DNA from: Desulfobacula sp.
GTDB taxonomy: Bacteria; Desulfobacterota; Desulfobacteria; Desulfobacterales; Desulfobacteraceae
Reading direction: 5' to 3'
Assembly: GCF_014237455.1 (NCBI RefSeq)
Contig: NZ_JABZFL010000015.1
Location: forward strand, 4,403 to 68,402
Length of the DNA stretch: 64,000 nt
This document shows positions 44,075-48,719 of this stretch, piece by piece (positions within the stretch are counted from its first letter, which is position 1; every line of letters starts with the position of its first letter). The notes beneath the pieces were generated by a model that did not search any database, had not been told where the DNA came from, and worked only from the letters and a program-made list of their open reading frames with translations. Both the position numbers and the translations under genes were made by a program.

Positions 44075-44179
44075 TGCTAAGTTTTTATTTTTTCCCCTTG
44101 ATATTTTTTCAAATTATCAAGGCAATTAGACGTGATAATAAATGGTTCTGTGTAAATATGATGAACCCAAAGCATTTTT

Positions 44180-44608
44180 TTGTTTAAAAAAAAGGTTTTA
44201 CGAATGGAAACAGAAGATGGCAGAAGAATTATTAGTGGTTTTTACTCCACCAAAGAAGAAAGAAAAGCTTGCTTAAGTTTGGAGCAATGGAGTAAATGGA
44301 AGCAATTGGAAAAAACCATTTCTGTACGAGATACAGGAACCAAGGCAATTGTGCACGGGCGCAATCGGAACCAACATAGTATAGTTGGAACACCCGGAGA
44401 GATAAATCCTTGGGGACATTCTGAAGGAACGATTGGCAATACCATTGATTATTGTGTTCAGCTTGGTATTTTTACAAAAGATCAAATAAAAATTCTTGCT
44501 GGAACAAAAATGAATAAAATCAATTCACATCTTCGCAGTATGGAAAAAAAAGGTGAGTATGTGGCAATTAAAAATTTTGATGGAATTATATCTTTTAAAA
44601 ATAAGTAA
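44180..44608 (+). CDS. Hypothetical protein, probable first cassette ORF (ends at attC1)
   Basis: AT-rich ORF whose stop abuts an attC-like hairpin; start uncertain (TTG 44180 or ATG 44204). Confidence 0.5.
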   Translation: MFKKKVLRMETEDGRRIISGFYSTKEERKACLSLEQWSKWKQLEKTISVRDTGTKAIVHGRNRNQHSIVGTPGEINPWGHSEGTIGNTIDYCVQLGIFTKDQIKILAGTKMNKINSHLRSMEKKGEYVAIKNFDGIISFKNK

Positions 44609-44681
44609 ACACAGAAGGCAAATTAACTCGGATGCAAATTCCGTTGCGCTCCATTTGCACCGGTTATTTGCAGCGTTAGCT
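44605..44681 (+). repeat. attC-like site 1 (R'' degenerate)
   Basis: GCAAAT[T]AAC[T]CGG[A]TGCAAAT ... ATTTGCACCGGTTATTTGC imperfect palindrome with three unpaired bases, ending in core GTTAGCT (44675-44681). Confidence 0.75.
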
Positions 44682-44718
44682 TGTCCAGTTCTCAGCTGGA
44701 TAAAAGGAGAAAGAACAA

Positions 44719-45150
44719 ATGGATAGTTTTGGTATAATTTTAATTGTTGCTGTTATTATTGGTATCATTCCTGCCTTTATTGCATCAAGTAAAGGGAGAG
44801 ATTTTGTTCTTTGGTGGATTTATGGCACATCATTGTTTGTCTTTGCTATGATTCATGCAATTGTATTAAAACCAAACGAAGAACAACTAATTAGAGAAGG
44901 AAAGAAACATTGTCCCTATTGTGATGAATTGATAAAGCCCAAAGCAACTGTATGTCGATACTGTAGCAGAGAGCTACCATCAGATCAGGAAGAATTGCCA
45001 GTATCAACTAAAGAAACAAATAAAGAAACAAAATTTTGTCATAATTGTTCAAATAATAGATACCATGGCTTTTCGGGGTATAAATGTAAATTAACTAAAA
45101 ACAAAACAGATACTTTTGAAACTTGTGACAATTGGAGTCAAAAAAGTTGA
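44719..45150 (+). CDS. Membrane protein with zinc-ribbon and second Cys cluster (cassette gene)
   Basis: Two TM helices, CPYC-x10-CRYC, then CHNC...C...C; RBS AAGGAG. Confidence 0.75.
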   Translation: MDSFGIILIVAVIIGIIPAFIASSKGRDFVLWWIYGTSLFVFAMIHAIVLKPNEEQLIREGKKHCPYCDELIKPKATVCRYCSRELPSDQEELPVSTKETNKETKFCHNCSNNRYHGFSGYKCKLTKNKTDTFETCDNWSQKS

Positions 45151-45908
45151 ATGAATTAATACGGGGATTTTTTTATCACTACACTTCAATCGAAAAACTT
45201 ACATTAATATTAAACAGTCAAAATATTCGATTCACCAGAGCTGATTTAGTTAATGATTTAGAGGAAATAAATATTATCGATAAACCTGAGATAAAAAAAT
45301 CTGCCTTTATTTCATGCTGGACAAGCCAAAATAATGAATCAATACCGATGTGGAATTTATATGGTGGTATATCAAAAGGAGTTAGAATAAAGCTGAGATA
45401 TCCGATTTTTGAAGGTGCATCTGTTGCATACAATGTTGAGAATCACCACTGCAACATTATGAATTTAAAAAATATCAGCAATTTTATAAAAAGAGATGGG
45501 GATCATGAATGGGTAAAGTATCTATTCGGACCAATTAAAGTAAATTATGCAAAAAATGTTGCTGTTTATGTAATAGGAAATAATAATTCTTTAATTGTAG
45601 AAAAAATTGGAACTCAAAAACTAGAACATTGGAAATTCGAAAATGAATCCCGTTTTTTAGCTCTGGCAAATCATGAATGGAATAGCAGTACAAAACAATT
45701 TGAACTTAAGCAGGAACCATATTATTCAAAGACTAAAGATAACTATTTTGATATCAGAATAGACAAAAATATATTCAATAAAATGGAAGTTACTCTTGGC
45801 CCAAGTTGTCAATATCCTGAGCAAATTATTGTTGAAAGTCTAATTGAAAAATTTACAACAAATGGAAAAGTGAAACTAAGCGAACTTAAAGAAAAAATTA
45901 GATTATAA
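45132..45908 (+). CDS. DUF2971-like protein (cassette gene)
   Basis: 'YHYTS...L', 'NDLEE', 'SCWT....ESIPMWNLYG...GVRI', 'KLEHWKFENESR'; start uncertain (TTG 45132 or 45147, coupled to the upstream stop). Confidence 0.65.
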   Translation: MESKKLNELIRGFFYHYTSIEKLTLILNSQNIRFTRADLVNDLEEINIIDKPEIKKSAFISCWTSQNNESIPMWNLYGGISKGVRIKLRYPIFEGASVAYNVENHHCNIMNLKNISNFIKRDGDHEWVKYLFGPIKVNYAKNVAVYVIGNNNSLIVEKIGTQKLEHWKFENESRFLALANHEWNSSTKQFELKQEPYYSKTKDNYFDIRIDKNIFNKMEVTLGPSCQYPEQIIVESLIEKFTTNGKVKLSELKEKIRL

Positions 45909-45915
45909 AAAGCTA

Positions 45916-47881
45916 ATCGGGTAGCCGGGGGTTTTAATCCCCCAGCCCCCACAACACCCTGCATGCGGGTCCGCACAGGGCGTTTCATCAAGATTACCGG
46001 GCTGTGGCCGGGTAATGTATTTTCACCCACTGTTCTTTGACAGATATTAACCCTTGTTCAGATAGCCATTTGTTTGTCATACCGGCCTGTGTTGCCATGG
46101 TTCTGGACAGATGCCATGGCCCTCTTCGGCTGAGGGATGTCATGATTGCCTCTCTTTTGTAGGTGCCTAATTTGAGAAGATTTCGGACTTTGGTACGGGT
46201 ATACCGCCATTGTTTCCAGTAGCACATCCGTGTCCGGCGGCGAAGCCATTCGTCTATTCCCGGAATTGGTCGGTAGTATTCCGATATCCCGTAATAGTTC
46301 ATCCAACCCCGGATATATTCCGCTAACTTCTTGTATCGGTGCTCCATAGAGACAAACCAGCTCCTTCCGGTAAACAGGCGTAACCGCCGCTTAAATTCCA
46401 GAAAGGATTTATCACTCCATCTGATTTTGCCATTTACAAATACAAAACCAAGAAAACCGCATTCTTCCACTGGTGCCACCTTGCTCTTCTTCTCGTTGAC
46501 TTTGAGTTGAAGCTTTAGCTCAAGGAACCGACGTATACTTGCCATCACCCGTTTGCCGGCACTCAGGCTTTTCACCATAATGATGAAATCATCTGCATAC
46601 CGGACAAAATGGTGGCCTCGTTTTTCCAGTTCCTTGTCAAGGTCATCAAGAAGGATATTAGCGAGCAAAGGTGAAAGTGGGCCTCCCTGGGGAACACCCG
46701 TAGGAGTTGCCTGAAGGCGGCCTTTGACCACAACACCGGCCCTGAGATATTTACCGATAAGCTTCAGTACTCGCTTATCTTGTATCTGGCGGGATACTCT
46801 ATTCATCAAGACATCGTGATTAACTTTATCGAAAAATTTCGACAAATCAGTATCAACGGCCACTTTGTAGCCCTGCCCTATGAATTGTTTTACCTGCCGG
46901 ACACCATCATGGGCCGATCTGCCAGGCCTGAAACCGCAACTTGATTCCGAAAACAAGGGATCAAATATTAACCCCATAACCTGGGCAATGGCTTGTTGGA
47001 TCGTTCTATCCAGCACGGTTGGGATACCCAGGGGACGTTTACTTCCATCCGGTTTTGGTATTTCAACCCTTAGAACAGGAGAAGGGATATATGTCCCTTC
47101 AAAAAGGTCTGAACGTATCTTAGGCCATAACTCACGAAAGGCGTCCGGAAATTGCTCAACGGTTACACCGTCGATTCCAGGGGCACCCTTGTTGGCCCGC
47201 ACCTGTTTCCAGGCACGACGTATATTCTCTGCCGAAAGAATACGTTCCAGTAGATGATTCTTTGAAAAAGGTACTTCCACAGCGCGCTTGTAAATTACTC
47301 CTCCATTCGGATTCACGGTATATACAAAGCTCATGGATACCTCCTTTTCGTTTGATGTTCTGTCCTTCACCCTGTCCGGGGCATTACTCCCGGCGTTTGG
47401 CTACTATGACGTCTGCTGACTTCTGCTTCATCACTAATCAGGTTACCCTGACCAGCGCAATGAAACTTCTTTTGCAGGTGTTGCCCATTGTTCGTGTCTC
47501 ATCACCGTCGGCAACAGCCGGTGATGCCTGGACCTTGGTTTCCCGGTATGGTCCGAGCCGGGAGTTGTTGCAAAAGATGCTCAATGCATGCAAGGCAGAT
47601 CTCCCCGGATAAGAGCGTGAACTGTCACTACACAACCGCAGCATTTACCCTGTCTCTTGAATCCTGGGCTTTGTCATGTTGTGCTGACTTACCCGGAGAC
47701 CAGGCCTTATATGCTGTTTCTGTTCGTCGGCTCATAGTTTTGCACTCCAACTTCCTTCGGACGGTTCCTCACAGTTCCGCCCTTGTTTTCGGCTAATACT
47801 TGTGTTAACAAAAACATATGCTAACAGGACTCACGTATAGGGGACTTGCACCCCATAAGTTCACGCCCATGCCGGGCGTAC
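45916..47881 (-). mobile_element. Group II intron, class IIC-attC, inserted in the bottom strand of attC2
   Basis: 5' end GTACGCCCGGCATGGGCG (G at 47881); domain V with CGC triad at 45953-45984; domain VI ending ACCCGAT at 45916; flanks rejoin into an attC. Confidence 0.9.
45994..47370 (-). CDS. ltrA: Group II intron reverse transcriptase/maturase (no endonuclease domain)
   Basis: RT0 'NKGAPGIDG', 'RPLGIPTVLDR', 'GVPQGGPLSPLLANI', 'YADD', X domain 'GWMNYY'. Confidence 0.95.
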   Translation of the reverse strand: MKDRTSNEKEVSMSFVYTVNPNGGVIYKRAVEVPFSKNHLLERILSAENIRRAWKQVRANKGAPGIDGVTVEQFPDAFRELWPKIRSDLFEGTYIPSPVLRVEIPKPDGSKRPLGIPTVLDRTIQQAIAQVMGLIFDPLFSESSCGFRPGRSAHDGVRQVKQFIGQGYKVAVDTDLSKFFDKVNHDVLMNRVSRQIQDKRVLKLIGKYLRAGVVVKGRLQATPTGVPQGGPLSPLLANILLDDLDKELEKRGHHFVRYADDFIIMVKSLSAGKRVMASIRRFLELKLQLKVNEKKSKVAPVEECGFLGFVFVNGKIRWSDKSFLEFKRRLRLFTGRSWFVSMEHRYKKLAEYIRGWMNYYGISEYYRPIPGIDEWLRRRTRMCYWKQWRYTRTKVRNLLKLGTYKREAIMTSLSRRGPWHLSRTMATQAGMTNKWLSEQGLISVKEQWVKIHYPATAR

Positions 47882-47937
47882 GCCAACTGTTCCACTGGAC
47901 CCGCAAACAGCGCGGGCCAGTGAACGCCACGTTAGAA
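47882..47937 (+). repeat. attC site 2, right part (left part AGCTA at 45911-45915)
   Basis: GTTC[C]ACTGG[A]CCCGC / GCGGGCCAGTGAAC stem gives extrahelical G and T on the bottom strand; core GTTAGAA at 47931-47937. Confidence 0.85.
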
Positions 47938-48029
47938 AAAAATAAAATCGTGAATCAATGCGCAGTGGGTTGGAAAAAGTCGTTTGGGTTACTGAATATT
48001 AACATATTGCAAAAGTACAAAGAGGTAGC

Positions 48030-48719
48030 ATGAAAACAATTGGTCTTTTGGGTGGAATGAGTTGGGAAAGCACGGTGAGTTATTATCGAGCGATAAACGA
48101 GGGGGTAAAAAATGCTCTTGGCGGTTTGCACTCCGCCAGGATCGTATTGTACAGTGTTGACTTTGACCCTATTGAGAAGCTGCAGCGAAAAGGCGATTGG
48201 GAAGGTACAGCTGAAATACTTTCAGAAGCAGCCTTGAGCGTTCAGTCTGCCGGTGCTGATTTTTTGGTTATCTGCACAAACACTATGCATAAGGTTGCTC
48301 CCCAGATAGAGGATACAATTGATATACCCTTGCTGCATATTGCTGATGCGACAGCCGAATCGCTTGTGCACAACGGTATAAAAAAAGTGGGCCTGCTGGG
48401 TACAGCGTTTACAATGGAGCAAGATTTTTACAAAGGTCGGTTGATTCAGAAATACGGACTCACTGTTTTGGTGCCCAATAAAGAAGACAGAAAGGCTGTC
48501 CACAAAATAATTTTTCAAGAGCTTTGTCTGGGGAAAATAAGAATCGATTCCAAGGCAACATATCTTCATATCATTGATTCCCTGGCTGACCAGGGAGCCG
48601 AAGCAGTGATTCTCGGCTGTACTGAAATAGGGATGCTTGTGAACCAGAGCGATACCACTGTAAAGCTGTTTGATACCACTGCTGTTCATGCAGAAAAGGC
48701 AGTCGCATATGCAATATAA
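48030..48719 (+). CDS. Aspartate/glutamate racemase family protein (YgeA/RacX-like)
   Basis: 'GLLGGMSWEST', catalytic 'CTNTMH' and 'GCTEI'. Confidence 0.92.
   Translation: MKTIGLLGGMSWESTVSYYRAINEGVKNALGGLHSARIVLYSVDFDPIEKLQRKGDWEGTAEILSEAALSVQSAGADFLVICTNTMHKVAPQIEDTIDIPLLHIADATAESLVHNGIKKVGLLGTAFTMEQDFYKGRLIQKYGLTVLVPNKEDRKAVHKIIFQELCLGKIRIDSKATYLHIIDSLADQGAEAVILGCTEIGMLVNQSDTTVKLFDTTAVHAEKAVAYAI

Follow-up and report, generated by a model that had tools for sequence, protein, structure and literature searches.

IIC-attC introns are described as inserting at the GT/T position of the R'' box of attC sites (PMC7923331), with a target consensus of TTGT/T, insertion at R'' and antisense orientation (PMC7923331 and PMC3001079). 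The stretch of DNA analysed here, a window of 64,000 nucleotides from a Desulfobacula sp. contig, carries such an intron within attC2, the second attC site of a small cassette cluster, beside a bottom-strand flank that ends in TGGC. The original prediction took this flank as a variant target. The question raised by the locus is whether the intron has acquired, or tolerates, a different target, or whether an ordinary intron now lies beside a base that has changed.

The intron and the attC site that it splits

45916..47881, minus strand: complete group IIC-attC intron, 1966 nt, 5' GUACG ... 3' CCCGAU (Rfam matches; ends common to about 57 related insertions)
47778-47614, minus strand: Rfam group II intron module RF02001 (domains I-IV), above gathering score
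47751..47758, minus strand: GAAGGAAG, the AGGAA bulge motif of domain I, intron positions 124-131, kept in all aligned relatives
47457-47362, minus strand: Rfam group II intron module RF01998 (domains I-IV), above gathering score
45994..47334, minus strand: intron-encoded RT/maturase of 446 aa in domain IV, with YADD at aa 246 (Pfam RVT_1 and GIIM)
45916..45985, minus strand: DV/DVI with CGC triad and 3-bp distal DV stem (RF00029, 48.7 bits, above gathering score; fold)
45909..45915, plus strand: left-hand side of attC2 R'', made up of AGCTA (from AGCTA/GC) and the two A before it, forming the intron 3' exon (bottom strand, starting with T)
47882..47937, plus strand: main part of attC2, with the GC of R'', the spacer CAACT, the L''/L' stem and R' GTTAGAA at 47931-47937 (bottom-strand fold; homologous attC sites)

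The intron begins with GTACGCCCGG at 47881 and ends with CTACCCGAT at 45916. To place these ends, 79 related loci were retrieved via their RT, and their intron ends were mapped with nhmmer. About 45 complete relatives have a GTACGCCC-type start, GTACGCCC itself in nearly all, and an ACCCGAT end, which in most is CTACCCGAT exactly as in the window copy; 12 further 5' junctions in the genus share the intron start. Because the ends are common to these insertions, the boundaries originally proposed, 45916 and 47881, are exact. The class assignment, the length and the orientation given there also hold, as judged by the Rfam modules, the RT domains and the strands: the cassette open reading frames lie on the plus strand and the intron on the minus strand, so that the intron is antisense to the cassettes.

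The RNA architecture is that of group IIC. When the last 85 nt of the intron were folded, the base of DV carried A-CGC-CC, and its hairpin comprised a stem of 10 bp, a bulge of 2 nt, a further 3 bp and a loop of 4 nt; the bulged A of DVI lies 7 nt before the intron 3' end. In class C introns, CGC replaces AGC in DV, the distal stem of DV is shorter by 2 bp, and the AGGAA bulge motif is typical (PMC1702495). The RT frame is intact, as had been noted originally: the 446-aa protein matches RVT_1 (8.6e-42, aa 92-298) and GIIM (6.5e-15, aa 313-386), the sole domains matched, and no endonuclease domain was found in it. The window intron thus shows a DV with CGC, the AGGAA motif, a 5' exon stem-loop and an RT without an endonuclease domain; the 3-4 bp of EBS1-IBS1 pairing that also characterise the group are lacking at its present flank, not in the architecture of the intron.

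On the plus strand, the flanks read ...AAAAAGCTA / GCCAAC..., and attC2 is split between AGCTA and GCCAAC (the slash marks the insertion point throughout). The bottom-strand exons read ...CCAGTGGAACAGTTGGC / TAGCT..., the 5' exon ending in TGGC and the 3' exon beginning with T. Canonical attC sites have an R'' box RYYYAAC and an R' box GTTRRRY. Both attC sites of the cluster have R' boxes canonical in GTT (GTTAGCT in attC1, GTTAGAA in attC2), and both R'' boxes deviate, that of attC2 reading AGCTAGC when rejoined. Intron-free homologues of attC2 read xxxTA/AC, followed by a 5-nt spacer and then GTTCCACTGG..., and therefore the intron lies between the two A of the R'' AAC, which is GT/T on the bottom strand. 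These homologues bear out the bottom-strand insertion at R'', at the canonical TA/AC position, and the register AGCTA/GC for AGCTA/AC. An R'' of AGCCAAC, which would place the insertion outside the box, was considered and rejected, as the homologues set xxxTAAC and the 5-nt spacer (CAACT) in the AGCTA/GC register. The bottom strand of attC2 provides the 5' exon hairpin, an 11-bp stem with one extrahelical T (-14.5 kcal/mol, z -3.7), and a 7-nt spacer separates this stem from the last 4 exon nt. Sites of the attC2 type are also found within an integron array, at 3.049 and 3.056 Mb of the complete genome G096, 13 and 20 kb downstream of the integrase (intI at 3.036 Mb).

EBS1 and its pairing with the flank

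47673..47688, minus strand: Id3 hairpin GUCA-GCACAACA-UGAC, its stem kept via compensatory changes in relatives
47682-47679, minus strand: EBS1, ACAA, intron positions 200-203 (EBS1-IBS1 covariation in 45 relatives)

In the domain I alignment of 45 relatives, the EBS1 hairpin has a 4-bp stem and an 8-nt loop GC-NNNN-CA, whose middle four bases covary with the four that end the exon: ACAA occurs with TTGT, ACCA with TGGT, ACCU with AGGT, CAAU with ATTG and UAAC with GTTA. Overall, pairing is seen in 170/180 EBS1-IBS1 cells; shuffling gave a mean of 131 (sd 4.7), and none of 2000 shuffles reached as high a value. In the solved IIC RNP (PMC10190682), the delta C is followed by an EBS1 of four bases, and the layout of the loop agrees with this. 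Every site, that of the window included, has T as its IBS3; since both sides of EBS3-IBS3 are invariant, covariation cannot place EBS3. By analogy with the solved structure (PMC10190682), its probable place is the invariant GGUAAAUG (intron positions 233-240).

ACAA, the commonest EBS1 of the lineage, has TTGT as its canonical partner. Against the TGGC of the window it forms two of four pairs, at -4 and -2 only, and leaves -1 unpaired. Two alternative registers were examined: pairing the loop GC with the exon GC, which gives only 2 bp, and a shift by one, which gives 3/4 pairs but would move the splice site. Both were rejected by inspection, since homology fixes GUACG as the 5' end. Position -1 is paired in 44 of the 45 relatives, a C at this position occurs at none of the approximately 57 other sites (the 45 relatives and the 12 further junctions), and two mismatches among the four EBS1-IBS1 positions are found nowhere else among the 45. 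The unusual flank noted at the outset is thus real and, in its C at -1, unique among the sites examined; the intron, however, is not adapted to it, given how regularly -1 is paired and that C occurs there nowhere else. Pairing of EBS1 with the flank, the lack of which had been named as a refutation, essentially fails, and recognition of a variant target by the intron is not borne out.

A change in target specificity, with EBS1 co-adapted to TGGC, would have precedents, as other branches carry retargeted EBS1 sequences (ACCA, ACCU, CAAU, UAAC) that match their flanks. However, the loop GCACAACA is the same in the window as in L006-L009, which occupy TTGT, TGGT and TTGG sites, it forms just the two pairs with TGGC, and the sole alternative register offers the 2 bp described above. 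Co-adaptation is therefore scarcely credible.

Single mismatches elsewhere in the tetranucleotide are less exceptional. Nine of the 45 relatives have a mismatch at -3 or -4, and at least four relatives (L008, L012, L017, L040) combine an ACAA EBS1 with a TGGT site; a -3 mismatch is therefore tolerated in the lineage. The closest relative, L006 (L132, G071:C99), whose RT is 92% identical to that of the window, also has -1 unpaired, with EBS1 ACAA at a TTGG site. Its R'' is non-canonical, with GA/CC on the top strand, and its sub-lineage may tolerate a mismatch at -1.

The cassette cluster and the origin of the odd base

44077..48005, plus strand: inserted block of cassette 1, cassette 2 and the intron, 3.9 kb, ends approximate (empty sites in G071 and G058; low GC)
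44603..44681, plus strand: attC1, with a conserved 63-nt core and R' GTTAGCT at 44675-44681 (homologue alignment; fold)
44719..45908, plus strand: two overlapping cassette open reading frames, encoding a zinc-ribbon protein of 143 aa and a second protein of 253 aa; the cassette ends in attC2

The block has a GC content of 0.31-0.35, against about 0.44 nearby, and is flanked by genes for a CBS-domain protein and an Asp/Glu racemase, with DUF1538 and P-II genes as other neighbours. In G071 and G058, the CBS and racemase genes stand side by side, with spacers of 73 and 50 nt, respectively. No integrase was found in the window; TIGR02249 matches above the cut-off occur only on contigs C96 and C5, which carry the two intI genes of the genome. 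The term CALIN denotes two or more clustered attC sites that lack an integron integrase in their vicinity; the block, with attC1 and attC2 and no integrase nearby, is such a cluster. Since this integrase-less block is absent from G071 and G058, a two-cassette CALIN has been inserted in a core locus. The ends of the block (44077-44180 and 47938-48005) do not match attC crossover points: about 65 nt extend beyond attC2 R' and about 100 nt precede cassette 1, while the corresponding position in G071 holds a segment of 42 nt.

The 253-aa protein (45147-45908, plus strand) of the cassette ending in attC2 has a weak DUF2971-like match. PADLOC also links it, weakly, with PDC-S31, a candidate defence family (best E 5.7e-8), and the TTG start of its frame overlaps the stop of the upstream zinc-ribbon frame (TTGA). 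The core of attC1 (44615-44680), a site of a different attC family from attC2, has copies 92-98% identical in more than 40 genomes from 14 genera of the family. This conservation across genera, unusually high for an attC site, suggests a shared cassette pool. Outside the R'' region, the attC1 core of the window is 95-98% identical to its homologues, and the general decay of the cluster is accordingly mild. In the R'' region, ACACAG stands where nine homologues have xxTAAC; within 44600-44619, this region reads GTAAACACAG before the AAGGC spacer, against xxxTAAC in the nine. It may have diverged, or it may carry a 4-nt insertion beside the point at which IIC-attC introns insert. The bottom-strand consensus of the attC1 homologues (L094-L102), GCCTTGT/TA, is a perfect TTGT/T intron target.

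The state of attC2 before the insertion can be read from intron-free sites. Four homologues in family genomes, in the register of the window, have TA/AC (L154, L155, L156, L159), and in L160, L161, L163 and L164 the AC lies one base to the left of that register. A scan that left the base at 47882 free matched five metagenome contigs, and all five read TA/AC. In L155 and these five, the spacer ACCAACTGTTCCACTGG is exact and the sole difference from the window is A in place of G; most other attC2 homologues keep AAC as well. Since intron-free sites of this type carry A, the G at 47882 (bottom-strand C) is, on sequence comparison, a derived A>G transition on the top strand, within the AAC of R'', and the target at the time of insertion was most probably TGGT/T. 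With A restored, R'' (AGCTAAC) is the perfect complement of attC1 R' GTTAGCT, which is the R' partner of the cassette itself; as it stands, AGCTAGC is complementary to it at 6/7 positions. The same cassette, with or without the intron, was not found when the DNA of cassettes 1 and 2 was searched against 161 family genomes, where only the attC1 core matched, and the exact attC2 junction pattern, with A or G, had no match in the metagenome collection.

A sequencing or assembly error at this base, with TGGT/T as the true site, was also considered. The assembly is a 113-contig draft, and the position borders a repeated mobile element with fragments elsewhere in the genome. However, the genome holds one full-length copy and no second copy of the junction that could cause a mis-assembly, the surroundings show no further signs of error, and the RT frame is unbroken. 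We regard an error as very improbable.

If the change is real, it may have preceded or followed the intron. In the former case, attC2 already read AGCTAGC, and the intron entered a non-cognate TGGC/T by means of the hairpin, the T of IBS3 and two EBS1 pairs. Such an entry is conceivable for IIC introns, which use merely 3-4 bp of IBS1 pairing and depend strongly on the 5' exon stem-loop (PMC1702495; PMC10190682); the mismatches at -3 or -4 and the unpaired -1 of L006, reported above, point the same way. Against it stand the absence of C at -1 from all other sites, the pairing of -1 in nearly all relatives, the lack of any second site with two of four positions mismatched, and the A found in 6/6 intron-free sites that share the spacer of the window. 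In addition, with AGC in its R'', the site would probably have been used poorly by IntI when the cassette was acquired. On balance, entry into a non-cognate site is possible but unlikely. If true, it would be a natural IIC-attC case without the -1 and -3 pairs, in which hairpin shape and IBS3 were enough.

We infer instead that the A>G change came after the insertion. This order is favoured because the -1 pair is near-universal in relatives and because a box with AGC would have served poorly in acquiring the cassette. The overall reading, an ordinary ACAA-type IIC-attC intron in a canonical site whose flank mutated after insertion, is given a probability of roughly 0.7. In outline, the two-gene cassette has attC2 as its recombination site, and a mobile IIC-attC intron would have entered the bottom strand of this site by reverse splicing, at the canonical R'' point (TA/AC on the top strand), just 3' of the attC hairpin, which would stand in for IBS2. 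EBS1 ACAA would then have formed three of four pairs with the ancestral TGGT, with a G.A mismatch at -3 as at several related insertions. The A>G change would have arisen later, in an integrase-less cluster no longer maintained for recombination. Since 2 kb now separate the two parts of its R box and the AAC is mutated, attC2 is expected to be a poor IntI substrate, and a 5' splice site without the -1 pair would leave a copy that splices poorly and is a poor donor for further mobility.

That the insertion blocks excision of the cassette is a reasonable inference from the split R box. Such a lock is partly moot because the R'' of attC1 is also non-canonical and no intI is present in cis. Nothing at the locus supports a part for the RT in the genesis of cassettes. 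It is rather doubtful that the intron truly entered TGGC/T or that the A>G change was kept since it freezes both elements. If the change was kept, one substitution in the AAC of R'' would disable both IntI recognition and splicing, fixing a defence-type cassette in the chromosome.

Related introns and the place of the locus among them

A search for other copies at attC sites of the same genome had been suggested, and it yielded no further full-length copy and two remnants only. The first is a DV-DVI remnant of 137 nt, about 2.6 kb from intI on contig C96 (L002, G000:C96:99042-99180, minus strand), and the second is an RT remnant of 160 nt on C107. A matching DV-DVI remnant is present in G071 (G071:C138:39406-39543); both lie about 2-2.6 kb from an integrase gene, antisense to the array, and belong to the intron family of the window copy (93-96% identical). 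The DV-DVI remnant is preceded just upstream by ATACGCCC, which may be the trace of an internally deleted intron. Across the genus, intron copies or fragments occur in 35/50 genomes. The copies most similar to that of the window (L006-L010, L103 and L104, from Desulfobacula, Desulfobacterium and Desulfobacterales MAGs) share its EBS1 loop without change, and their 5' exons form attC-like hairpins; they differ in occupying other sites, ending in TTGT, TGGT or TTGG, and none carries the window cassette. The two full-length genus copies among them, L103 and L104, are 89-90% identical in DNA to the window intron.

The RT of the window shows 84-92% identity with RTs of Desulfobacula, Desulfobacterium and Desulfobacterales MAGs; with the RT of the attC intron beside blaIMP-4 (L004), identity is 54.7%. 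In a quick maximum-likelihood search, rooted on clostridial IIC RTs and with L004 as its single literature-type reference, the window RT and that of L004 fall in one 57-row clade with an SH-aLRT of 100 against the clostridial outgroup. All TTGT/T-type loci lie inside this clade, and the window RT nests within the Desulfobacteria copies. The same clade includes Oceanispirochaeta MAGs (L041-L054) whose EBS1, CAAU or UAAC, matches ATTG, TTTG or GTTA flanks. These introns occur in many copies per genome, with 5' exons that are not obviously attC-like, and may represent a retargeted, non-integron offshoot.

The closest known systems are the IIC-attC introns of class 1 integrons, namely S.ma.I2 of Serratia marcescens (PMC3001079) and the intron beside blaIMP-4 on IncN plasmids (L004). 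They have the same 5' GUACGCCC and 3' CUACCCGAU, the same EBS1 ACAA and the same bottom-strand R'' point of the TTGT/T type; they too are antisense to the cassettes, encode an RT without an En domain and share one RT clade with the window intron. The latter differs in its setting, an integrase-less two-cassette cluster on a Desulfobacula-like chromosome with a TGGC flank, whereas theirs is an enterobacterial plasmid with TTGT. Unlike S.ma.I2 with its Pout, the window copy showed no sigma-70-like outward promoter in 47300-48060, as scanned with an E. coli-type consensus. Classical IIC introns, such as B.h.I1 (PMC1702495) and the E.r. intron of the solved RNP (PMC10190682), have in common with it the hairpin, the short spacer, a 4-nt IBS1, a 1-nt IBS3, the CGC triad and short distal stem of DV, the AGGAA bulge motif and, presumably here as well, the lack of EBS2. 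They differ in being directed at transcription terminators, in the sense orientation, and in having no tie to integrons, and the tree places clostridial IIC RTs outside the clade of the window intron.

The variant target of this locus thus amounts to a single derived substitution next to an intron whose specificity is canonical, not a new target specificity, and the current understanding of IIC-attC introns is unchanged. The locus is a well-documented chromosomal example of an IIC-attC intron outside clinical class 1 integrons, and its relatives form a natural covariation series for EBS1-IBS1 in the IIC-attC lineage. The cassette and the intron copy are both likely to be immobilised, which fits a gradual fixation of cassettes that have strayed from their integrase.
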